11,511 nt of DNA. Origin: a virus. Shown piece by piece: positions 1 to 11,511 of this stretch. How positions within the stretch are numbered: the first letter of the stretch is position 1; the number at the start of each line of letters is the position of its first letter. The stretch lies in UHGV virus genome UHGV-0110285, one strand, 5' to 3'. A model generated the notes under the pieces. That model worked only from the letters and a program-made list of their open reading frames with translations, did no database searches and was not told where the DNA came from. A program made the translations under genes and the position numbers.

Positions 1-46
1 AGGTTGCTCCGGGCTATGAAATAGAAAAATGAATCCGTTGAAGCCT
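1..46. other. Host chromosomal flank (B arm of attL, gal side of attB-lambda)
   Basis: Sequence left of the core (..GAAGCCTGCTTTTTTATACTAA) matches the recalled bacterial attB arm rather than the phage P arm; the right side of the core continues as the lambda P' arm (AGTTGGCATTATAAAAAAGC..). Confidence 0.7.
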
Positions 47-61
47 GCTTTTTTATACTAA
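47..61. other. attL: Lambda att 15-bp common core (O) GCTTTTTTATACTAA
   Basis: Exact 15-bp lambda att core read directly at 47-61. Confidence 0.95.
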
Positions 62-134
62 GTTGGCATTATAAAAAAGCATTGCTTATCAATTTGTTGC
101 AACGAACAGGTCACTATCAGTCAAAATAAAATCA
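62..134. promoter_or_regulatory. attL P' arm: IHF H' site (TATCAATTTGTTG, about 86-99) and Int arm-type sites P'1/P'2 (AGGTCACTAT CAGTCAAAAT, 108-127)
   Basis: Recognisable IHF consensus WATCAANNNNTTR and tandem arm-type Int sites immediately 3' of int, as in lambda attP/attL. Confidence 0.8.
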
Positions 135-1205
135 TTATTTGATTTCAATTTTGTCCCACTCCCTGCCTCTGTCATCACGATACTGTGATGCCATGGTGTC
201 CGACTTATGCCCGAGAAGATGTTGAGCAAACTTATCGCTTATCTGCTTCTCATAGAGTCTTGCAGACAAACTGCGCAACTCGTGAAAGGTAGGCGGATCC
301 CCTTCGAAGGAAAGACCTGATGCTTTTCGTGCGCGCATAAAATACCTTGATACTGTGCCGGATGAAAGCGGTTCGCGACGAGTAGATGCAATTATGGTTT
401 CTCCGCCAAGAATCTCTTTGCATTTATCAAGTGTTTCCTTCATTGATATTCCGAGAGCATCAACATGCAATGCTGTTGGGATGGCAATTTTTACGCCTGT
501 TTTGCTTTGCTCGACATAAAGATATCCATCTACGATATCAGACCACTTCATTTCGCATAAATCACCAACTCGTTGCCCGGTAACAACAGCCAGTTCCATT
601 GCAAGTCTGAGCCAACATGGTGATGATTCTGCTGCTTGATAAATTTTCAGGTATTCGTCAGCCGTAAGTCTTGATCTCCTTACCTCTGATTTTGCTGCGC
701 GAGTGGCAGCGACAGGGTTTGTTGTTATATGGCCTTCAGCTATTGCCTCTCGGAATGCATCGCTCAGTGTTGATCTGATTAACTTGGCTGACGCCGCCTT
801 GCCCTCGTCTATGTATCCATTGAGCATTGCCGCAATTTCTTTTGTGGTGATGTCTTCAAGTGGAGCATCAGGCAGACCCCTCCTTATTGCTTTAATTTTG
901 CTCATGTAATTTATGAGTGTCTTCTGCTTGATTCCTCTGCTGGCCAGGATTTTTTCGTAGCGATCAAGCCATGAATGTAACGTAACGGAATTATCACTGT
1001 TGATTCTCGCTGTCAGAGGCTTGTGTTTGTGTCCTGAAAATAACTCAATGTTGGCCTGTATGGCTTCAGTGATTGCGATTCGCCTGTCTCTGCCTAATCC
1101 AAACTCTTTACCCGTCCTTGGGTCCCTGTAGCAGTAATATCCATTGTTTCTTATATAAAGGTTAGGGGGTAAATCCCGGCGCTCATGACTTCGCCTTCTT
1201 CCCAT
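135..1205 (-). CDS. int: Lambda integrase Int (tyrosine recombinase), 356 aa
   Basis: ATG-initiated 356-aa ORF MGRRRSHERRDLPPNLYIRNNGYYCYRDPRTGKEFGLG.. recognised as lambda Int; 3' end abuts the P' arm. Confidence 0.97.
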   Translation of the reverse strand: MGRRRSHERRDLPPNLYIRNNGYYCYRDPRTGKEFGLGRDRRIAITEAIQANIELFSGHKHKPLTARINSDNSVTLHSWLDRYEKILASRGIKQKTLINYMSKIKAIRRGLPDAPLEDITTKEIAAMLNGYIDEGKAASAKLIRSTLSDAFREAIAEGHITTNPVAATRAAKSEVRRSRLTADEYLKIYQAAESSPCWLRLAMELAVVTGQRVGDLCEMKWSDIVDGYLYVEQSKTGVKIAIPTALHVDALGISMKETLDKCKEILGGETIIASTRREPLSSGTVSRYFMRARKASGLSFEGDPPTFHELRSLSARLYEKQISDKFAQHLLGHKSDTMASQYRDDRGREWDKIEIK

Positions 1206-1401
1206 TTCTGATCCTCTTCAAAAGGCTACCTGTTACTGGTCGATTTAAGTCAACCTTTACCGCTGATTCGTGGAACAGATACTCTCTTCCATCCTTAACC
1301 GGAGGAGGGAATATCCTGCACTCGCGTACCCATCGACGAACTGTTTCAAGGCTTCTTGGGCGTCGCTGGCGTGCGTTCCATTCCTGAAGTGTCAAGTACA
1401 T
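1183..1401 (-). CDS. xis: Lambda excisionase Xis, 72 aa
   Basis: 72-aa ORF MYLTLQEWNARQRRPRSLETVRRWVRECRIFPPPVKDGREYLF.. ; 23-nt overlap with int start as in lambda. Confidence 0.95.
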   Translation of the reverse strand: MYLTLQEWNARQRRPRSLETVRRWVRECRIFPPPVKDGREYLFHESAVKVDLNRPVTGSLLKRIRNGKKAKS

Positions 1402-1425
1402 CGCAAAGTCTCCGCAATTACACGC

Positions 1426-1450
1426 AAGAAAAAACCGCCATCAGGCGGCT
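1426..1450 (-). terminator. Putative intrinsic terminator on minus strand (hairpin CCGCC-TGAT-GGCGG followed by a T6 run) between orf55 and xis
   Basis: Plus strand reads AAAAAACCGCCATCAGGCGGCTT; the minus-strand RNA would form a GC hairpin followed by UUUUUU. Confidence 0.5.
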
Positions 1451-1608
1451 TGGTGTTCTTTCAGTTCTTCAATTCGAATATTGGTTACGTCTGCATGTGC
1501 TATCTGCGCCCATATCATCCAGTGGTCGTAGCAGTCGTTGATGTTCTCTGCTTCGATAACTCTGTTGAATGGCTCTCCATTCCATTCTCCTGTGACTCGG
1601 AAGTGCAT
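1441..1608 (-). CDS. Small hypothetical protein (lambda orf55-like), 55 aa; absent from the supplied ORF track because it is under 60 aa
   Basis: Manually translated minus-strand ORF MHFRVTGEWNGEPFNRVIEAENINDCYDHWMIWAQIAHADVTNIRIEELKEHQAA with GGAG 8 nt upstream of the ATG and in-frame stops immediately upstream. Confidence 0.55.
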   Translation of the reverse strand: MHFRVTGEWNGEPFNRVIEAENINDCYDHWMIWAQIAHADVTNIRIEELKEHQAA

Positions 1609-1696
1609 TTATCATCTCCATAAAACAAAACCCGCCGTAGCGAGTTCAGATAAAATAAATCCCCGCGAGTGCGAGGATTGTTATGTAATATTGGGT

Positions 1697-1978
1697 TTAA
1701 TCATCTATATGTTTTGTACAGAGAGGGCAAGTATCGTTTCCACCGTACTCGTGATAATAATTTTGCACGGTATCAGTCATTTCTCGCACATTGCAGAATG
1801 GGGATTTGTCTTCATTAGACTTATAAACCTTCATGGAATATTTGTATGCCGACTCTATATCTATACCTTCATCTACATAAACACCTTCGTGATGTCTGCA
1901 TGGAGACAAGACACCGGATCTGCACAACATTGATAACGCCCAATCTTTTTGCTCAGACTCTAACTCATTGATACTCAT
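1697..1978 (-). CDS. ea8.5: Lambda Ea8.5 (small zinc-binding protein, function unknown), 93 aa
   Basis: 93-aa ORF MSINELESEQKDW.. with Cys/His motifs (SPCRHHEG, CPLC); AAGGAG RBS upstream; position between xis and ea22 as in lambda. Confidence 0.85.
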   Translation of the reverse strand: MSINELESEQKDWALSMLCRSGVLSPCRHHEGVYVDEGIDIESAYKYSMKVYKSNEDKSPFCNVREMTDTVQNYYHEYGGNDTCPLCTKHIDD

Positions 1979-2169
1979 TTATAAACTCCTTGCAATGTAT
2001 GTCGTTTCAGCTAAACGGTATCAGCAATGTTTATGTAAAGAAACAGTAAGATAATACTCAACCCGATGTTTGAGTACGGTCATCATCTGACACTACAGAC
2101 TCTGGCATCGCTGTGAAGACGACGCGAAATTCAGCATTTTCACAAGCGTTATCTTTTACAAAACCGATC

Positions 2170-2718
2170 TCACTCTCCTTTGATGCGAATGCCAGCGTCA
2201 GACATCATATGCAGATACTCACCTGCATCCTGAACCCATTGACCTCCAACCCCGTAATAGCGATGCGTAATGATGTCGATAGTTACTAACGGGTCTTGTT
2301 CGATTAACTGCCGCAGAAACTCTTCCAGGTCACCAGTGCAGTGCTTGATAACAGGAGTCTTCCCAGGATGGCGAACAACAAGAAACTGGTTTCCGTCTTC
2401 ACGGACTTCGTTGCTTTCCAGTTTAGCAATACGCTTACTCCCATCCGAGATAACACCTTCGTAATACTCACGCTGCTCGTTGAGTTTTGATTTTGCTGTT
2501 TCAAGCTCAACACGCAGTTTCCCTACTGTTAGCGCAATATCCTCGTTCTCCTGGTCGCGGCGTTTGATGTATTGCTGGTTTCTTTCCCGTTCATCCAGCA
2601 GTTCCAGCACAATCGATGGTGTTACCAATTCATGGAAAAGGTCTGCGTCAAATCCCCAGTCGTCATGCATTGCCTGCTCTGCCGCTTCACGCAGTGCCTG
2701 AGAGTTAATTTCGCTCAC
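2170..2718 (-). CDS. ea22: Lambda Ea22, 182 aa (GTG start overlapping the orf73 stop as GTGA)
   Basis: 182-aa ORF MSEINSQALREAAEQAMHDDWGFDADLF.. ; size and position match lambda Ea22. Confidence 0.85.
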   Translation of the reverse strand: MSEINSQALREAAEQAMHDDWGFDADLFHELVTPSIVLELLDERERNQQYIKRRDQENEDIALTVGKLRVELETAKSKLNEQREYYEGVISDGSKRIAKLESNEVREDGNQFLVVRHPGKTPVIKHCTGDLEEFLRQLIEQDPLVTIDIITHRYYGVGGQWVQDAGEYLHMMSDAGIRIKGE

Positions 2719-2936
2719 TTCGAACCTCTCTGTTTACTGATAAGTTCCAGATCCTCCTGGCAACTTGCACAAGTCCGACAACCCTGAACGACCAGGCGTC
2801 TTCGTTCATCTATCGGATCGCCACACTCACAACAATGAGTGGCAGATATAGCCTGGTGGTTCAGGCGGCGCATTTTTATTGCTGTGTTGCGCTGTAATTC
2901 TTCAATTTCTGATGCTGAATCAATGATGTCTGCCAT
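2715..2936 (-). CDS. TraR/DksA-family C4 zinc-finger protein (lambda orf73-like), 73 aa
   Basis: 73-aa ORF with CCECGDPIDERRR...CRTCASCQ, the four-Cys zinc finger typical of TraR/DksA secondary-channel RNAP binders. Confidence 0.75.
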   Translation of the reverse strand: MADIIDSASEIEELQRNTAIKMRRLNHQAISATHCCECGDPIDERRRLVVQGCRTCASCQEDLELISKQRGSK

Positions 2937-2989
2937 CTTCCATTAATCCCTGAATTGTTGGTTAATACGCTTGAGGGTGAATGCGAATA

Positions 2990-3013
2990 ATAAAAAAGGA
3001 GCCTGTAGCTCCC
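2990..3013 (-). terminator. Putative intrinsic terminator on minus strand (GGGAGC-TACAG-GCTCC hairpin followed by a T6 run) between the orf61 region and orf73
   Basis: Plus strand AAAAAAGGAGCCTGTAGCTCCC; minus-strand RNA would be a hairpin plus UUUUUU. Confidence 0.45.
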
Positions 3014-3034
3014 TGATGATTTTGCTTTTCATGT

Positions 3035-3346
3035 TCATCGTTCCTTAAAGACGCCGTTTAACATGCCGATTGCCAGGCTTAAATGAGTCGGTGTGAATCC
3101 CATCAGCGTTACCGTTTCGCGGTGCTTCTTCAGTACGCTACGGCAAATGTCATCGACGTTTTTATCCGGAAACTGCTGTCTGGCTTTTTTGATTTCAGAA
3201 TTAGCCTGACGGGCAATGCTGCGAAGGGCGTTTTCCTGCTGAGGTGTCATTGAACAAGTCCCATGTCGGCAAGCATAAGCACACAGAATATGAAGCCCGC
3301 TGCCAGAAAAATGCATTCCGTGGTTGTCATACCTGGTCTCTCTCAT
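3035..3346 (-). CDS. Hypothetical protein in the lambda orf61 position; open for 103 codons here
   Basis: ATG start overlaps the orf63 stop by 20 nt (lambda-like arrangement); the frame stays open to 3035. Confidence 0.55.
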   Translation of the reverse strand: MRETRYDNHGMHFSGSGLHILCAYACRHGTCSMTPQQENALRSIARQANSEIKKARQQFPDKNVDDICRSVLKKHRETVTLMGFTPTHLSLAIGMLNGVFKER

Positions 3347-3518
3347 CTGCTTCTGCTTTCGCCACCATCATTTCCAGCTTTTGTGAAAGGGATGCGGCTA
3401 ACGTATGAAATTCTTCGTCTGTTTCTACTGGTATTGGCACAAACCTGACTCCAATTTGAGCGAGGCTATGTGCCATCTCGATACTCGTTCTTAACTCAAC
3501 GGGAGATGCTTTGTGCAT
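3327..3518 (-). CDS. Lambda orf63-like hypothetical protein, 63 aa
   Basis: 63-aa [29 protein letters not shown].. in the expected position and with the expected overlaps. Confidence 0.7.
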   Translation of the reverse strand: MHKASPVELRTSIEMAHSLAQIGVRFVPIPVETDEEFHTLAASLSQKLEMMVAKAEADERDQV

Positions 3519-3673
3519 ACAGCTCCCCGTTTATTATTTATCTCCTCAGCCAGCCGCTGTGCTTTCAGGGGATTTCGGATAACAGAAAGGCCGGGAAATA
3601 CCCAGCCTCGCTTCGTAACGGAGTAGACGAAAGTGATCGTGCCTACGCGGATATTATCGTGAGGATGTTTCAT
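3491..3673 (-). CDS. Lambda orf60a-like hypothetical protein, 60 aa (ATG at 3673 overlapping the exo stop as ATGA; the track ORF starts two codons earlier at 3679)
   Basis: [29 protein letters not shown].. ; translational-coupling overlap with exo. Confidence 0.65.
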
Positions 3674-4350
3674 CGCCATTGCTCCCCAAATACAAAACCA
3701 ATTTCAGCCAGTGCCTCGTCCATTTTTTCGATGAACTCCGGCACCATCTCGTCAAAACTCGCCATGTAATTTTCATCCCGCTCAACCACGACATAATGCA
3801 GGCCTTCACGCTTCATTCGTGGGTCATAGTTGGCAAAGTACCAGGCATCTTTTCGCGTCACCCACATGCTGTACTGCACCTGGGCCATGTAAGCTGACTT
3901 TATGGCCTCGAAACCACCGAGCCGGAATTTCATGAAATCCCGGGAGGTAAACGGGCATTTCAGTTCAAGGCCGTTGCCGTCACTGCATAAACCATCGGGA
4001 GAGCAGGCGGTGCGCATACTTTCGTCGCGATAGATGATCGGGGATTCAGTAACATTCACGCCGGAAGTAAACTCAAACAGGGCTCTGGCGTCGTTCTCGT
4101 ACTGTTTTCCCCAGGCCAGCGCCTTAGCATTAACTTCCGGAGCCACACCGGTGCAAACCTCAGCCAGCAGGGTGTGGAAGTAGGACATTTTCATGTCAGG
4201 CCACTTCTTTCCTGAGCGGGGCTTTGCTATCACGTTGTGAACTTCTGAAGCGGTGATGACGCCGAGCCGTAATTTGTGCCATGCATCATCCCCCTGTTCG
4301 ACAGCTCTCACGTCGATCCCGGTACGCTGCAGGATAATGTCCGGTGTCAT
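3670..4350 (-). CDS. exo: Lambda exonuclease (Red alpha), 226 aa
   Basis: 226-aa [46 protein letters not shown].. recognised as lambda Exo; ATGA overlap with the bet stop. Confidence 0.96.
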
Positions 4351-5132
4351 GCTGCCACCTTCTGCTCAGTGGCTTTCTGTTTCAGGAATCCAAGAGCTTT
4401 CACTGCTTCGGCCTGTGTCAGTTCTGACGATGCGCGAATGTCGCGGCGAAATATCTGGGAACAGAGCGGCAATAAGTCGTCATCCCATGTTTTATCCAGG
4501 GCGATCAGCAGAGTGTTAATCTCCTGCATGGTTTCATCGTTAACCGGAGTGATGTCGCGTTCTGGCTGACGTTCTGCAGTGTATGCAGTATTTTCGACAA
4601 TGCGCTCGGCTTCATCCTTGTCATAGATACCAGCAAATCCGAAGGCCAGACGGGCACACTGAATCATGGCTTTATGCCGTAGCATCCGTTTGGGATGCGA
4701 CTGCCACGGTCCGGTGATTTCTCTGCCTTCGCGGGTTTTGAATGGTTCGCGGCGGCATTCATCCATCCACTCGGTAACGCAGATCGGATGATTACGGTCC
4801 TTGCGGTAAATCCGGCATGTACATGATTCATTGTCCTGCTCAAAGTCCATGCCATCAAACTGCTGGTTTTCATTGATGATACGGGACCAGCCATCAACGC
4901 CCACCACCGGAACGATGCCGTTCTGCTTGTCAGGGAAGGCGTAAATTTCTTTCGTCCACGGATTAAGGCCGTACTGGTTGGCGACGATCAACAATGCGAT
5001 GAACTGCGCATCGCTGGCATCACCTTTAAATGCCGTCTGGCGAAGAGTGGTGATCAGTTCCTGTGGGTCGACAGAATCCATGCCGACGCGTTCAGCCAGC
5101 TTCCCAGCCAGCGTTGCGAGTGCTGTACTCAT
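4347..5132 (-). CDS. bet: Lambda Beta single-strand annealing protein (Red beta), 261 aa
   Basis: 261-aa [62 protein letters not shown].. recognised as lambda Bet. Confidence 0.96.
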
Positions 5133-5137
5133 CCGTT

Positions 5138-5434
5138 TTATACCTCTGAATCAATATCAACCTGGTGGTGAGCAATGGTTTCAACCATGTACCGGATGTG
5201 TTCTGCCATGCGCTCCTGAAACTCAACATCGTCATCAAACGCACGGGTAATGGCTTTTTTGCTGGCCCCGTGGCGTTGTAAATGATCGATGCAGAGTGAT
5301 TCAAACAGGTGCTGGGGCAGGCCTTTTTCCATGTCGTCTGCCAGTTCTGCCTCTTTCTCTTCACGGGCGATCTGCTGGTAGTGACGCGCCCAGCTCTGAG
5401 CCTCAAGACGATCCTGAATGTAATAAGCGTTCAT
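5138..5434 (-). CDS. gam: Lambda Gam (RecBCD inhibitor), short 98-aa form only
   Basis: 98-aa [63 protein letters not shown].. ; an in-frame stop lies 18 codons upstream of the ATG, so the longer 138-aa form is not encoded. Confidence 0.9.
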
Positions 5435-5488
5435 GGCTGAACTCCTGAAAATGGCTGTGAAAATATCGCCCGCGAAATGCCAGGCTGA

Positions 5489-5602
5489 TTAGGAAAACAG
5501 GAAAGGGGATTAGTGATTCAGGCCGTTACCGCGTCCGTCGAGAAAAACTTCCACGAGCAAATCACGGGTATCTGGCTGAAAGAGGGGGTTATTAAGGCGT
5601 GA
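5489..5602 (+). pseudogene. 3' remnant of the gene normally upstream of rusA (product unknown), truncated at the gam/nin junction
   Basis: Open frame ..[27 protein letters not shown] ends with a TGA that overlaps the rusA GTG start (GTGA coupling) but has no start codon; its upstream end runs into gam-derived sequence. Confidence 0.4.
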
Positions 5603-5961
5603 ATACCTACAGTATCACATTACCCTGGCCTCCGAGCAATAATCGCTATTACCGCCATAATCGCGGGCGCACGCACATCAGCGCAGAAGGGCAGGCATAC
5701 CGCGATAACGTCACCCGAATCATTAAAAACGCAATGCTGGATATCGGCCTGGCTATGCCAGTGAAAATCCGTATTGAGTGCCACATGCCGGATCGCCGTC
5801 GCCGTGACCTGGATAATCTGCAAAAAGCCGCTTTTGACGCACTCACCAAAGCAGGTTTCTGGCTGGATGATGCTCAGGTCGTTGATTACCGCGTTGTGAA
5901 GATGCCGGTTGTCAAAGGTGGAAAGCTGGAACTGACCATCACTGAACTGGGAGATGAATGA
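5599..5961 (+). CDS. rusA: RusA Holliday-junction resolvase, 120 aa (GTG start)
   Basis: 120-aa [40 protein letters not shown].. recognised as the RusA family found in nin regions of lambdoid prophages (DLP12, phage 82). Confidence 0.9.
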
Positions 5962-6098
5962 TGTTTGAGTTTTATATGGCAGAACTTCTTCGCCACCGCT
6001 GGATGCGCCTGCGCTTATATCGTTTCCCCAGTTCTGTTTTGACCGATTACCGAATACTGAGGAATTACGCCAAAACCCTGACAGGAGCAGGAGTATGA
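5958..6098 (+). CDS. ylcG: YlcG-like small protein, 46 aa; absent from the supplied ORF track because it is under 60 aa
   Basis: Manually translated [49 protein letters not shown] starting 4 nt before the rusA stop; 46 codons, matching the size and position of DLP12 ylcG between rusA and Q. Confidence 0.55.
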
Positions 6099-6183
6099 AG
6101 TCAGAGATAACAATCAACTAATACTGTTTTGTTGATTTTTGCTTGTAATTGGCGTTCTGGTCTGATTTTTGTGGAGTAAGTTG

Positions 6184-6567
6184 ATGCGTGATATTCAGAT
6201 GGTTCTTGAGCGTTGGGGAGCGTGGGCGGCTAATAATCATGAAGATGTGACCTGGTCGTCCATTGCCGCCGGTTTTAAGGGATTAATTACTTCAAAAGTA
6301 AAATCTCGCCCGCAATGTTGTGACGATGACGCGATGATTATTTGCGGGTGCATGGCCCGTCTGAAAAAGAACAACAGCGATTTGCACGATTTATTAGTAG
6401 ATTATTATGTAGTCGGTATGACATTCATGTCACTGGCAGGTAAGCATTGCTGCTCTGATGGTTATATCGGGAAAAGGTTACAGAAGGCTGAGGGTATAAT
6501 TGAAGGGATGTTAATGGCATTAGATATCCGGTTAGAGATGGATATCGTTGTTAATAACTCTAATTAA
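6184..6567 (+). CDS. quuD: Late-gene antiterminator Q (QuuD-like, non-lambda Q type), 127 aa from the ATG at 6184 (the track ORF begins at a TTG at 6169)
   Basis: [24 protein letters not shown].. with Cys-rich stretch [16 protein letters not shown]; GGAG 8 nt upstream of the ATG; sits between rusA/ylcG and the lysis genes. Confidence 0.8.
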
Positions 6568-6600
6568 TACGCCAATTATTTACTAAAAGTTATTAAAAAT

Positions 6601-6619
6601 GGGGCGTTGAAACGCCCCC
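6601..6619 (-). terminator. Intrinsic terminator for minus-strand (porin) transcripts: GGGGCGT-TGAA-ACGCCCC followed by AUUUUU on the minus strand
   Basis: Perfect 7-8 bp GC stem read directly; the T-run is on the minus-strand side. Confidence 0.6.
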
Positions 6620-6658
6620 AAAAATAAAGGGTAATATATAACAGAAGGTTTGTATAGT

Positions 6659-6706
6659 TAGAAGCAAGGTTGTGCTTCTAAAGGAAGTGGCTTGAGGGAG
6701 CCACTT
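6659..6706. other. Two back-to-back stem-loops with identical geometry (8-bp stem, 6-nt loop): TAGAAGCA-AGGTTG-TGCTTCTA at 6659-6680 and AAGTGGCT-TGAGGG-AGCCACTT at 6685-6706
   Basis: Perfect inverted repeats read directly; neither has a flanking T-run. Confidence 0.6.
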
Positions 6707-6710
6707 ATAT

Positions 6711-6745
6711 GTTGGGGAGGCAAAGCCTCCCACAACATATCTTTT
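6711..6745 (+). terminator. Intrinsic terminator for plus-strand transcripts leaving Q: GTTG(G)GGGAGGC-AAA-GCCTCCC(A)CAAC followed by UAUCUUUU
   Basis: 11-bp stem with one bulge plus a downstream U-run on the plus strand. Confidence 0.55.
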
Positions 6746-6755
6746 AGTAATCAAA

Positions 6756-7838
6756 TTAGAACTGGTAAACCATACCTACAGCAACGATATCATCGGTAGC
6801 AACGCCAGATGCTTTCGTGAAATCGCTCTTATCAATCAGGTTGATTTTGTAGTCAACAAAAGTGGACATATTTTTGTTGAAGTAATAGGTTGCACCTACA
6901 TCAACATATTCAACCAGGTCCTGATCACCCCAAACACCCAAGTCTTTTCCTTTAGAATGCAGGTAAGCAACGGATGGACGCAGGCCGAAGTCGAACTGAT
7001 ATTGTGCAACAGCTTCGAAGTTTTGTGCTTTGTTGGCAATATGGTTATTACCAAAAACAGTCATGTTCTGGGTTTCAGAATAGGTGGTGGCCAGATAGAT
7101 GTTGTTCGCATCATATTTCAGACCAGCTGCCCATACTTCAGCATTTTGACCAGAAGCATTCAGACCGTTGTTACCGTAGATAACCTGATTATTAGTGCGA
7201 TCAGATTTAGCATAGGTTGCACCCACGCCGAATCCTTCATACTCATAAGTAGTTGAGAAACCGAAACCATCGCCATTAGCTTCAGTTACTTCATTTCGGT
7301 CATTTTTGCCCTGATACTGAGCTGCAAAGTTCAGGCCATCAACCAGACCAAAGAAGTCGTTGTTACGATAAGTTGCAACACCTGTGGTGCGACCAGTCAT
7401 GAATACATCTGTTTGGGTCCAGGTATCGCCACCGAATTCTGGCAGAACGTCAGTCCACGCACCGATGTCGTATGCTACACCGTAGTTACGGCCGTAATCG
7501 ATGGAGCCGTAGTCACCGAATTTCAGGCCAGCGAAGGCAAGACGGGTTTTATCTTTGGAGGAACCTTGAGATTCAGCGCGGTTGCCTTTGAATTCATATT
7601 CCCACTGACCGAAACCAGTCAGTTGATCGTTGATTTGGGTTTCACCTTTGAAGCCAAGACGGGCATAAGTAGTATCACCATCATCTGCATCATTAGAGGA
7701 GAAGTAGTGTTTAGCATTAACTTTCCCGTACAGATCCAGCTTGTTACTGTCTTTATTATAAATTTCAGCTGCCTGAGCAGACATCGCCATCAGTACTGAT
7801 GCAGCTACAGCAGAAATTGCCACTGTTAATTTTTTCAT
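6756..7838 (-). CDS. nmpC: Phage-borne general porin of the OmpC/OmpF superfamily (Lc/NmpC/OmpD-like), 360 aa, apparently intact
   Basis: Signal peptide [23 protein letters not shown] then AEIYNK..; 16-strand porin-like sequence ending in a C-terminal Phe (..VGMVYQF); convergent with Q, the arrangement known from PA-2 lc and DLP12 nmpC. Confidence 0.9.
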
Positions 7839-8060
7839 CGTGAGCCCTTTTTTTTGAACTATTATTAAAAAATGATGTCACTGCGCGATAAATATTCATC
7901 TAATCAATATGATTATTTCAAGATGTAAGTTTTGGTTTCTCGTTTGATTTGTGAAGTAGATCTCTATTTTTATCTGAACTTTTTTCTATCGAATCCTATT
8001 CATGGCTCTTGGCTGAATAAAAATAAATCTATTAGCCAATTTATATTAACGGTTGTTATT
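7839..8060 (-). promoter_or_regulatory. AT-rich 5' control region of the porin gene (promoter not resolved)
   Basis: About 220 bp of AT-rich non-coding sequence immediately upstream of the porin ATG on the minus strand. Confidence 0.3.
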
Positions 8061-8266
8061 TATAAGTGCTCTATGATTTGAAGGTTCAATTTAAATCGGC
8101 TAAAAATAACACTAGAAATTATTTGTTGGTTATTTGTTGAGATTTGCTTATGTATTTGTAGTGGTGTTTTCAATACTCGGTAGCATTCTCGCAAATATCA
8201 TTTAGTGGTTTACGTACGTAAAAAATTGGTTATGCTGTTAAGAGTGGTTACTTCGTCACACAGCTT

Positions 8267-8300
8267 AAACCCGCCGTCGAGCGGGTTTTTCCATTTTTTG
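8267..8300 (+). terminator. Intrinsic terminator on the plus strand about 115 nt upstream of the holin (tR'-like): AAACCCGC-CGTCGA-GCGGGTTT followed by UUCCAUUUUUU
   Basis: Perfect 8-bp stem plus a U-rich tail on the plus strand. Confidence 0.6.
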
Positions 8301-8411
8301 AGTCTCGATATTAGCTGATAACCCAATACCTGAGTTATTCACTGACTCCGAGTCTGTTACGTTTCGTAGTATTCCCTCAATTTACACCCGCTTTGTCTGC
8401 GAGGTGGGGTT

Positions 8412-8627
8412 ATGAAATCCATGGATAAGTTAACAACGGGTGTCGCCTATGGCACCTCAGCAGGTAGTGCCGGGTACTGGTTTTTACAGCTGCTAGATAA
8501 AGTCACGCCCTCACAGTGGGCGGCAATTGGAGTGCTGGGTAGCCTGGTATTTGGCCTGCTGACGTACCTGACAAACCTTTATTTCAAGATTAAAGAAGAT
8601 AAGCGCAAGGCTGCGAGAGGTGAATAA
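8412..8627 (+). CDS. essD: Class II holin/pinholin of the phage 21 S type, 71 aa, with dual-start motif MKSM
   Basis: [71 protein letters not shown]: two transmembrane segments, charged C-terminus, Met1/Met4 starts; GAGGTGG RBS. Confidence 0.9.
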
Positions 8628-9124
8628 TGCCTCCATCATTACGAAAAGCCGTTGCTGCTGCTATTGGTGGCGGAGCAATTGCTATAGCATCAGTGTTAAT
8701 TACTGGCCCAAGTGGTAACGATGGTCTGGAAGGTGTCAGCTACATACCATACAAAGATATTGTTGGTGTATGGACTGTATGTCACGGGCATACAGGAAAA
8801 GACATCATGCTCGGTAAAACGTATACCAAAGCAGAATGCAAAGCCCTCCTGAATAAAGACCTTGCCACGGTCGCCAGACAAATTAACCCGTACATCAAAG
8901 TCGATATACCGGAAACAACGCGCGGTGCTCTTTACTCGTTCGTTTACAACGTGGGTGCTGGAAATTTCAGAACATCGACGCTTCTTCGCAAAATAAACCA
9001 GGGCGATATCAAAGGCGCATGTGATCAGCTACGTCGCTGGACATATGCTGGCGGTAAGCAATGGAAAGGTCTCATGACTCGTCGTGAGGTTGAGCGTGAA
9101 ATTTGTTTGTGGGGTCAGCAATGA
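8627..9124 (+). CDS. rrrD: SAR (signal-anchor-release) endolysin, lysozyme of the phage 21 R type, 165 aa
   Basis: N-terminal Gly/Ala-rich weakly hydrophobic segment [20 protein letters not shown] followed by a lysozyme-like domain; ATG overlaps the holin TAA (TAATG). Confidence 0.92.
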
Positions 9125-9579
9125 ACAGAGTAACCGCGATTATCTCCGCTCTGGTTATCTGCATCATCGTCTGCCTGTCATGGGCTGTTAATCATTACCG
9201 TGATAACGCAATCGCCTACAAAGAGCAGCGCGATAACAAGGCCAGTGAACTGGAGAAGGCGAACGCCACCATCGCTGACATGCGGAAGCGTCAACGTGAT
9301 GTAGCAGAACTCGACGCAAGATACACAAAGGAGCTTGCTGATGCTAACGCGACTATCGAAAGTCTCCGTGCTGATGTTTCTGCTGGGCGTAAGCGCCTGC
9401 AAGTCGCCGCCACCTGTGCAAAGTCAACGACCGGAGCCAGCGGCATGGGCGATGGAGAAAGCCCAAGACTTACAGCAGATGCTGAACTCAATTATTACCG
9501 TCTCCGAAGTGGAATCGACAAGATAACCGCGCAGGTTAACTACCTGCAGGAATACATCAGGACGCAATGCCTGAAATAA
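9121..9579 (+). CDS. rzpD: Rz spanin inner-membrane subunit (i-spanin), 152 aa from the ATG at 9121 overlapping the endolysin stop (the track ORF starts at 9103)
   Basis: [28 protein letters not shown].. : N-terminal transmembrane segment then a coiled-coil-like periplasmic domain; position after the endolysin. Confidence 0.85.
9341..9526 (+). CDS. rzoD: Rz1 outer-membrane lipoprotein spanin (o-spanin) embedded in the +1 frame of Rz, 61 aa from the ATG at 9341 (the track ORF starts at a TTG at 9335)
   Basis: [20 protein letters not shown]|[16 protein letters not shown].. : lipobox ending in Cys, proline-rich mature part; AAGGAG 9 nt upstream; fully nested in Rz. Confidence 0.8.
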
Positions 9580-9610
9580 TTTTTTTGCAAATCACAAAGT
9601 CCATTTAATG

Positions 9611-9636
9611 AGCCTCGCGATGCGGGGCTTTTTTTA
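9611..9636 (+). terminator. Intrinsic terminator downstream of Rz: AGCCUCGC-GAU-GCGGGGCU followed by UUUUUUU
   Basis: GC-rich 8-bp stem (one G-U pair) and a T7 run on the plus strand, 32 nt after the Rz stop. Confidence 0.7.
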
Positions 9637-9784
9637 CATCTGAATTTCACAGCGCATCTCACGCGCATATTACATCACCCGAGCCTTTCAGAAAGTTGAG
9701 CCTGAGAACTGCCGTATATGGTGGCGACCATCTCGGGGCGGCTTTTCTGTGAGACAGGCTCACTTTCTAAAAGGTAAAGACGCT

Positions 9785-10273
9785 ATGAACCAATTAGAAG
9801 AAAAGCTTCAAAGAATGATTTCCTTATACAAGGAAGATAACTGCCAAAAAGTTCCTGAAAACATCGCAGAGTTAATGGAATTGGCAAGTGAATTTTCTGG
9901 CATGCTTAAGTCGTCAGGTGTTCGGTCAGCGTTCTTTGTTGAAATGCTGATGCACGGCGGACTTATGGCAACAATGAGACGTGTAATGGAAGACCAGAGA
10001 AAAGAACCTCCTCAGGTATACGTTTTGTCATCGAAGAAAACTGGGCTAACCAAAATTGGGTATTCATCCAACATTCCACAACGCATCAAATCGCTTGGCA
10101 ACTCTGGACCAGACTGCTTGAAGCTTGAGTGCCTGATCCCTGGTGGAAGAGAAACTGAAAACATGCTTCATCGCAAATTTGCCGCAAAGAGAAAGCACGG
10201 TGAATGGTTCGCCCTGTCCAAGGATGACATTGAGGGATTGAAATCTGTAGCGATTACTTCTGATGGCTATTAA
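9785..10273 (+). CDS. Hypothetical protein with a C-terminal T5orf172/GIY-YIG-like domain, 162 aa from the ATG at 9785 (the track ORF starts at a GTG at 9749); sits where lambda carries bor
   Basis: C-terminal half QVYVLSSKKTGLTKIGYSSNIPQRIKSLGNSGPDCLKLECLIPGGRETENMLHRKFAAKRKHGEWFALSKDDI fits the T5orf172 pattern (VYVL..KIG...R..L...E..LH..F...R..GEWF); AGGTAAAGA RBS before the ATG; N-terminal 75 aa helical with no recognised similarity. Confidence 0.6.
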   Translation: MNQLEEKLQRMISLYKEDNCQKVPENIAELMELASEFSGMLKSSGVRSAFFVEMLMHGGLMATMRRVMEDQRKEPPQVYVLSSKKTGLTKIGYSSNIPQRIKSLGNSGPDCLKLECLIPGGRETENMLHRKFAAKRKHGEWFALSKDDIEGLKSVAITSDGY

Positions 10274-10310
10274 TGCTTGTTTAGAGCAATTTTCATAACA
10301 ACTCTTCATT

Positions 10311-10345
10311 ACAAAGCCCATCTACTGGTGGGCTTGATAATGAAA
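10311..10345. repeat. Copy 1 of an imperfect direct repeat (ACAAAGCCCATCTACTGGTGGGCTTGATAATG); also folds as a hairpin AAGCCCA/TGGGCTT
   Basis: Aligned by eye with 10667-10705; shares the ACAAAGCC, CTAC, GTGG and TTGATAATG blocks. Confidence 0.45.
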
Positions 10346-10587
10346 CCGTGATTTACATCCCCACAATCCGGGTATGTAAAAGATAGTTCAGGCGAGAACG
10401 GATTTAACTAAATCTGTGCGCCACCAGTTAACGGCAGTACCACGAAACAACCCAAGCCAGTAAGTGGGGAAATAACACCGGCAGCCACTGAAAGATGAAC
10501 CTCCTGCCTTATGGCAAAAAAGATTCTTTGTGGTGGCGGACTGATGGAAAGACATCCTAATTTCAGCCAAACATTGAAGGAGTTGTT

Positions 10588-10659
10588 ATGTCAGCAGAAG
10601 GTTTCAATAACCCATCAAAATTCCGGGATGAGTGGGATAGCAGCGTAAAGAGTAAGTGA
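10588..10659 (+). CDS. Possible 23-codon small ORF (MSAEGFNNPSKFRDEWDSSVKSK) with a strong Shine-Dalgarno; may be a micro-protein or the 5' remnant of a lost gene
   Basis: AAGGAG 5 nt upstream of the ATG; short; lies between the two direct-repeat copies. Confidence 0.25.
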   Translation: MSAEGFNNPSKFRDEWDSSVKSK

Positions 10660-10666
10660 TGCCATC

Positions 10667-10705
10667 ACAAAAGCCATTCCCTACAGAGTGGCTTTGATAA
10701 TGGCT
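10667..10705. repeat. Copy 2 of the imperfect direct repeat (ACAAAAGCCATTCCCTACAGAGTGGCTTTGATAATG); hairpin AAGCCA/TGGCTT
   Basis: Aligned by eye with 10311-10345. Confidence 0.45.
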
Positions 10706-10951
10706 TATACCCTACACGGGATAACTTAACTGATATCCCTTTTAAAGGATAAAGGTATTCAAGCCTGACACATCATGCGCTGTATCGTCGCCGTATTCCC
10801 GTATTAACAGAGACCGTAGCCCGACGGGGAACTCCTTCTGCGAGAGTGTGCGGGAATAATCAAAAACGATGCACACCGGGGTTACCGGGTACACATATTT
10901 CATCATGCCAGCGAGTCCGGTTCTGGCACGGAAGAAACCGGACGTTATGAT

Positions 10952-11362
10952 TTAGTGCGGAAATATTTGTGTAGTGTTCTGAATGTTCTCAGTAAAGAGT
11001 AATGAATTATCAAAGGTATAGTAATACCTTTTGTTTTCGTGGATATTTGTAATCCATCTGAAAACCCCTGCTGTAGCAAGATTTTTCCTGTATTCGTAAA
11101 ATGATAACTCTCCTGATTTGAATCCTTTTAAGGTGGCTTCTATAAGGCATTTATTTTTTGAAAATCTTACATTTACAACCTTACCCTGTCCTTTTATTAA
11201 AACCGTATTATCGTTTTCAAGAACAAGATGAATATTCTCTGTGGCTAAATAGTAAATGTAATGTGAGACATTGTGACGTTTTAGTTCAGAATAAAACCAG
11301 TGATAGTTTAAATTATTTCGCACTTTATCGAATATTTGTTTAAAAATGGCAACCTGAGCCAT
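10952..11362 (-). CDS. AT-rich hypothetical protein, 136 aa from the ATG at 11362 (the track ORF starts at 11377); tentatively YbcV-like
   Basis: [38 protein letters not shown].. ; GGAAGG RBS 7 nt upstream of the second ATG; 136 aa equals the recalled size of DLP12 YbcV, which lies in the same place and orientation relative to the lysis genes; strongly AT-biased codon usage. Confidence 0.45.
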
Positions 11363-11511
11363 TGTAGTACCTTCCATGTGATATGAGGGGCGTAGTCTGC
11401 ACGATTATCTAAATTGCTTCAATCTGGTCTGATCTGTTTTCTGAGCAATTCAGTAATTGATCCTACCCACGTAATATGGACACAGGCCTAAGCGAGGTTC
11501 TTGTTTTCAAA

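Follow-up and report, generated by a model that had tools for sequence, protein, structure and literature searches.

A 71-codon gene, truncated in lambda, and a candidate 27-codon membrane-peptide ORF probably underlie the 103-codon frame at the orf61 position of a lambdoid prophage

In the lambda reference (NC_001416), orf61 is annotated at 30839..31024 and comprises 61 codons. At the same position in the virus genome UHGV-0110285, the reading frame stays open for 103 codons. This raises the question of what caused the difference in length, which form is ancestral, and how much of the long frame is protein. The window, by which we mean the whole stretch of 11,511 nucleotides analyzed here, shares 98.6% identity with the int to gam segment of lambda over positions 47-5516, and its gene order is int, xis, ea8.5, ea22, orf73, the 103-codon ORF, orf63, orf60a, exo, bet and gam. 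A preliminary description of the locus reported a 103-codon ORF beginning with ATG and overlapping orf63 by 20 nt (3327-3346), and gave 61 codons for the lambda product. The ORF listing, the extent of orf63 and the lambda annotation agree with all three statements. The features of the locus, in the direction of transcription, are the following.

3327..3518, minus strand: orf63 (DUF1382; Pfam E=3e-31), the upstream gene of the same leftward operon.
3035..3346, minus strand: the 103-codon ORF with its ATG start, from the ORF listing and translation.
3247..3330, minus strand: a 27-codon hydrophobic small ORF (MTTTECIFLAAGFIFCVLMLADMGLVQ) in a frame other than that of the 103-codon ORF, a candidate from its translation, synonymous excess and ATGA junctions.
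3317..3319, minus strand: codon 10 of the 103-codon ORF, GGA here and TGA in most relatives, from the comparison of loci.
3035..3250, minus strand: the proposed 71-codon gene (MTPQQENALRSIARQ...GVFKER), intact counterpart of lambda orf61 and member of PHROG 303, from the PHROG match, homologues, synonymous excess, RefSeq extent and the AF2 model.
3185..3190, minus strand: a run of six A (A6; T6 on the plus strand), which is A7 in lambda, from the alignment.
2943..3038, minus strand: a 31-codon ORF (MNMKSKIIRELQAPFLLFAFTLKRINQQFRD) whose ATG shares an ATGA with the stop of the 71-codon gene, annotated in a few phage records.
2715..2936, minus strand: orf73, the downstream neighbor, a TraR/DksA-type zinc-finger protein (Pfam PF01258, E=1.6e-8).

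The window (1-11511) has the layout of a DLP12-like defective lambdoid prophage, with the immunity and replication regions missing. The lambda-like left arm, from int to gam, extends to approximately 5516 and is joined directly to rusA (5599-5961). It is followed by the antiterminator Q gene (6169-6567), a porin gene (6756-7838, minus strand), P21-type holin, lysozyme and Rz genes (8412-9579), a T5orf172-domain gene (9749-10273) and a DUF1398 gene (10952-11377, minus strand). Antisense to rusA, a TTG-started ORF of 165 codons (5620-6117, minus strand) has no family match and is probably not a gene. None of the complete E. coli genomes matches the window end to end, the best reaching 81% coverage at 97.5% identity, and Rfam and tRNA scans of the window returned no matches. 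Meanwhile, we notice that orf63, which has 63 codons here and in lambda, is annotated with 37 codons in phage ev243 (L002 1928-2041) and in PhiR47_2 (L138 728-841), which may be another truncation.

Aligning the window with lambda and phage ev243 revealed a single frame-changing difference between the window and lambda: the run of six A at 3185-3190 corresponds to seven A in lambda (NC_001416 30862-30868). Phage ev243 carries A6, the same as the window. The DNA is otherwise close, with 98.3% identity between lambda and the window over 2900-3560. With A7, the lambda frame shifts after Lys54 of the 103-codon reading, which is Lys22 of the 71-aa protein, and the lambda product continues from ...SEIKK into SQTAVSG and terminates, the stop lying seven codons beyond the shift. 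The indel suspected in the preliminary description is a 1-bp change in the A run. In the window, the A6 frame is intact through the C-terminal helices of the protein and open to 3035.

We counted both states by scanning IMG/VR contigs for an exact 25-nt pattern, and found A6 in at least 120 contigs and A7 in 13. Contigs carrying exactly the 71-aa form of the protein number at least 1000, against 997 for 93 aa, 170 for the 61 aa of lambda and 70 for 103 aa; the region itself occurs in 3142 of 5426 complete E. coli genomes, with approximately 4,250 copies in E. coli. The A7 state is present in four independent lambda-type records: NC_001416, PV340536 (a 2025 resequencing), OM418625 (lambda imm21) and NZ_CP043205 (a chromosomal lambda prophage in a K-12-like lysogen). 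Judged from match length, it is also present in the DE3 prophage of BL21(DE3) and in HK630. RefSeq annotates a lambda-prophage copy as a 'frameshifted' pseudogene. Because A6 is the common state, lambda carries the derived, frameshifted and truncated allele, and the preliminary guess of a longer ancestral form is upheld by these counts and by the homologues described below. The change is of the slipped-strand type: lambda and its laboratory relatives have gained one A, from A6 to A7, which shifts the frame and brings an early end of the protein. The unshifted A6 of the window leaves the frame open down to 3035.

Could the difference instead be a sequencing error, with A7 the true state of the window or A6 that of the lambda reference of 1982? 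It does sit in a homopolymer run, the commonest site of such errors, and A7 turns up on three haplotype backgrounds among contigs derived from metagenomes, part of which could be erroneous. However, an error in the window is hard to reconcile with the many contigs that carry A6 and the exact intact protein, and an error in the reference with four independently produced A7 records and the match lengths of DE3 and HK630. We regard a sequencing error as scarcely credible, and we are nearly certain that the A6 to A7 indel is real and that lambda has the truncated form. The A7 loci of IMG/VR (L123-L135) fall on at least three local haplotype backgrounds, for which recurrent slippage, recombination or homopolymer assembly errors are possible sources. 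The exact lambda 61-aa Orf61 is also recorded under Enterococcus faecium and Lactobacillales names, most likely through contamination with lambda control DNA.

The several backgrounds of A7 would also be expected if the run were a contingency (phase-variable) site, at which reversible A6/A7 slippage toggles the 71-aa protein, with lambda fixed in the 'off' state. A six-base run is short for efficient slippage, though, and A6 and A7 are the sole states seen. In addition, recombination among mosaic lambdoid phages, or assembly errors, could place A7 on several backgrounds. We consider phase variation very unlikely and retain a derived truncation in lambda and its relatives as the reading of the A run.

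The truncation of lambda orf61 is already in print and in the RefSeq annotation. Donaldson reported that lambda Orf61 'appears to be truncated' relative to its counterparts in Phi24B and 933W, that lambda Orf61 models as unstructured, and that the 93-aa Orf61 of Stx phages models as a three-helix fold over residues 24-93 (Antibiotics 2021; PMC8614690). The same work shows that 'uncharacterised', the word used for the protein in the preliminary description, does not fit, as the protein has been studied. Residues 24-93 of the 93-aa form are residues 2-71 of the 71-aa protein. We found no paper naming the A run as the cause, and the orf61 frameshifts found in the literature are engineered ones, none natural; the A run as the cause is a detail, not a discovery. 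The Orf61 of the mBio 2022 TraR paper is an unrelated protein from Vibrio phage VP882.

The published Orf61 proteins share the locus of the window ORF, between orf63 and orf73 in the exo-xis region, and differ from it in extent. Lambda orf61 (NP_040613, phrog_26061) stops at 61 codons through the +1 frameshift of A7. In contrast, the Orf61 proteins of Phi24B (vb_24B_7c) and 933W (phrog_303) are essentially identical to the window protein over residues 11-103; Stx phages mostly have a stop at codon 10, which leaves a 93-codon ORF, whereas GGA in the window gives 103 codons. RefSeq/PGAP entries around WP_000188870 (71 aa) have yet another extent, which coincides with the gene that we propose, starting at Met33 of the long frame and differing from the published 61-, 93- and 103-codon annotations.

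To locate the start, we used the last 71 residues as the query of a full HMMER scan against 1.84 billion representative proteins. The divergent homologues, from Yersinia, Citrobacter and others, have 31-65% identity, are all 68-78 aa long, and align from query residue 1. A profile search gave 394 relatives, mostly of 71-74 aa, in Yersinia, Citrobacter and Enterobacter. In both searches, an N-terminal extension is absent from every divergent homologue. Three hits that appeared distant in the first protein search (P0071, P0073 and P0074) were set aside, being frameshifted copies of the same DNA and not divergent relatives. The genomic context gives a similar picture. In a Citrobacter prophage, the homologue of the 71-aa gene immediately follows a Dam methylase gene, to which its start is joined by ATGA, and in a mosaic E. 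coli variant the 71-aa gene comes after an unrelated 250-aa gene.

Close relatives provide a further view of the 5' part. We compared 105 related IMG/VR loci, which were selected through an exact 25-nt match close to the A run and comprise 70 distinct haplotypes. In 67 of these loci the long frame has a stop at codon 10, in eight its first codon is ACG, and only a minority of the loci are able to read 103 codons. This speaks against the preliminary statement that a 103-residue protein begins at the 'expected ATG'. Variants were then counted by their effect on codons, as listed here. The sequences are closely related and their haplotypes are non-independent events, so that the P values, against an expected synonymous fraction of 0.21-0.24, are to be read accordingly.

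3327-3250 (codons 7-33 of the 103-codon ORF), read in the frame of the reported ORF: 5 synonymous, 15 non-synonymous, 2 stop; p=0.52 for synonymous excess.
3327-3250, read in the frame of the small ORF: 13 synonymous, 8 non-synonymous, 1 stop; p=3.7e-4 for synonymous excess.
3247-3038, read in the frame of the reported ORF: 20 synonymous, 16 non-synonymous, 0 stop; p=1.3e-5 for synonymous excess.

The lengths of the homologues, their genomic context, the close relatives and the substitution pattern are four independent lines that place the start at Met33 (window 3250) and not at the ATG at 3346, and we hold this start with high confidence. The 103-codon ORF is probably a composite, in which codons 1-32 are not coding in that frame and codons 33-103 are the real gene. 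We strongly infer that codons 1-32 are open only incidentally, and a protein of 103 codons is probably an illusion of annotation. The preliminary description does not hold on this point: its 103-residue protein includes 32 codons under no coding selection in that frame, while every divergent homologue begins at the equivalent of Met33.

The alternative is that the long ORF is translated, either from Met11 to give the 93 residues annotated in Stx phages or from Met1 to give 103, its N-terminal 22-32 residues being real and fast-evolving, and perhaps sharing their DNA with the small ORF by dual coding. All 105 loci keep the frame open from Met11 onwards, the PHROG 303 profile begins at Met11, and the 93-aa form is used for Phi24B in the literature (PMC8614690). 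Gene callers also give 93 aa about as often as 71 aa, and 103 aa on the 70 contigs counted above. On the other hand, codons 7-33 have no synonymous excess in this frame, and the stop at codon 10 counts against the 103-residue reading in particular. All divergent homologues lack the extension, and the mosaic variants begin at Met33 after unrelated genes. In the AF2 model of the 103-aa form, no secondary structure is predicted for residues 1-30, whose pLDDT stays below 50. As for initiation, the Shine-Dalgarno pairing of Met11 is the weakest among the candidate starts; that of the small ORF is -5.6 kcal/mol and that of Met33 is -3.9 kcal/mol, both weak. We judge translation of the long ORF improbable and continue with the start at Met33.

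The second frame of the 5' region is the 27-codon small ORF, for which the region 3327-3250 shows purifying selection at the protein level (expected synonymous fraction 0.24). Variants found in more than two haplotypes are all synonymous in this frame, including GGA/TGA/AGA at codon 10 of the long ORF. At codon 10 of the long ORF, the base that decides between an open and a closed frame is a synonymous third position in the small ORF, that of Thr4. Among the 105 IMG/VR loci, 93 have the identical 27-aa peptide and the others have it intact or almost intact; of 176 phage records, 138 match it at 99% identity or more. An ATGA joins the small ORF to each of its neighbors: at 3330-3327 its start codon shares bases with the stop of orf63, and at 3250-3247 its TGA stop shares bases with the start codon of the 71-codon gene. 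Based on the substitution pattern and these junctions, we propose that the 5' DNA is read in this other frame as a hydrophobic peptide (3247..3330), which would be translationally coupled to orf63 upstream and to the 71-codon gene downstream. Since the Shine-Dalgarno pairings of the small ORF and of Met33 are both weak, expression would depend on this coupling. We lean, with some reserve, towards the small ORF being translated.

Boundaries of homology touch the same start codon. The homology between the window and the DLP12-type prophage of BL21 has its limit exactly at the ATG of the small ORF, which in BL21 comes after a GGGAGG Shine-Dalgarno sequence and overlaps the stop of Dam; in a Citrobacter phage, the same Dam junction starts the homologue of the 71-aa gene. 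The small ORF is absent beside divergent homologues of the 71-aa gene, and we found no homologues of it outside E. coli lambdoid phages. It is not annotated in the lambda reference or in the phage records inspected, we found no mention of it in the exo-xis literature searched, and the peptide sequence had no matches in full-text literature. Databases already list the peptide: it has a UniRef entry, and gene calls on 981 contigs name it 'hypothetical protein'.

The 27-aa peptide has a GRAVY of 1.6 overall and 2.9 in its core. Over its 15 residues, the core, CIFLAAGFIFCVLML, averages 2.9 on the Kyte-Doolittle scale, and this length is short for a membrane span. The peptide is probably a single-pass membrane peptide. 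It resembles the small single-pass membrane peptides of prophage early regions in length, in having one hydrophobic stretch and in its tight coupling to neighbors. In sequence it is similar to no characterized peptide, and its membrane placement is a prediction. In a Yersinia prophage (L141 1792-1997), two unrelated hydrophobic ORFs of 35 and 32 codons, with one hydrophobic stretch each, lie directly upstream of the homologue of the 71-aa gene, an arrangement that echoes that of the window.

The 71-aa protein belongs to the Orf61 family by profile (phrog_303, E=3.6e-43, with residues 11-103 of the long reading on profile positions 1-93) and by position, its gene lying between orf63 and the TraR-like orf73 on the same strand, in the same order as in lambda and ev243. 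The family is found in Enterobacterales prophages and sits, in the loci examined, in the segment from the recombination genes to the integrase gene. The gene adjoins a TraR-type gene in lambda-like and Citrobacter loci and lies just before the excisionase and integrase genes in the Yersinia locus. AF2 with the family alignment predicts, with pLDDT 89, helices at residues 3-26, 32-49 and 54-64, and in this model the protein would be a three-helix bundle. The family reached no Pfam or NCBIfam model, and a sequence-profile search of the PDB gave no relatives with solved structures. Fold searches with the model returned only generic helical bundles, and the BFVD search only uncharacterized viral proteins of approximately 70 aa.

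Two identities have been attached to this protein. WP_000188870 and its relatives are named 'cell division protein ZapA' or 'hypothetical protein', and the ZapA name is unsupported: the match to the Pfam model (PF05164) scores 16.1 bits against a cut-off of 23.8 and covers 33 residues only, just three of 21 family members reach E <1, there is no NCBIfam match, and ZapA is not among the closest structural matches to the model. A homeodomain-like DNA-binding fold was proposed for Phi24B Orf61 by Donaldson (2021; PMC8614690). The 71-aa model does have three helices in an order similar to that of homeodomain-like three-helix DNA-binding domains. The Pitx2 homeodomain appears in the Foldseek list, but no structural match to homeodomains is significant.

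Downstream of the 71-codon gene, the 31-codon ORF at 2943..3038 gives no codon-position signal of selection in the sample of loci, and we do not claim it as a gene. It may correspond to a 31-aa peptide that ribosome profiling of lambda is reported to have shown. Inside this ORF, just downstream of the 71-codon gene, lies a terminator-like hairpin (AGGGAGC-TAC-AGGCTCCTT then TTTTATTATT; 2996-3014, minus strand).

When orf61 is deleted, both the lysis-lysogeny decision and prophage induction are impaired, and the effect is larger in Phi24B than in lambda (PMC6213356). The stronger effect in Phi24B fits a lambda copy that is already crippled; keeping only the first 22 residues of the 71-aa protein, the lambda copy is most likely inactive. 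As a tentative guess drawn from the literature only, the 71-aa protein may be produced early, from the leftward operon, and may steer lambdoid phages towards lytic growth as a small modulator that is not an enzyme, and it would act most likely by binding another protein or DNA. The most likely structure of the locus is orf63, the 27-codon membrane-peptide ORF and the 71-codon gene, chained by ATGA overlaps. Taken as a whole, the reading that joins the A6/A7 truncation, the 71-codon gene, the coupled 27-codon ORF and this functional guess is one in which we have good confidence.

The chances are even, in our estimate, that what the literature on lambda and Stx phages calls 'orf61' is two coupled genes, one for a conserved 27-residue membrane peptide in another frame and one for a 71-residue helical protein that begins at the internal Met and is already dead in lambda. 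On this reading, the published phenotypes of lambda orf61 deletions and engineered frameshifts would reflect loss of the small peptide or polar effects, and not loss of 'Orf61'. The indel and the length difference by themselves change nothing; the revised gene structure is a modest, testable refinement. Work on the exo-xis region in lambda and Shiga-toxin phages is poorly served by the lambda copy as a model of the gene, and the 61-, 93- and 103-codon annotations all probably contain residues outside the protein. The deletions used so far would destroy the conserved 27-codon ORF that lies under the supposed N-terminus. A two-gene structure could alter the reading of published mutant phenotypes and the design of constructs for structure and interaction studies.
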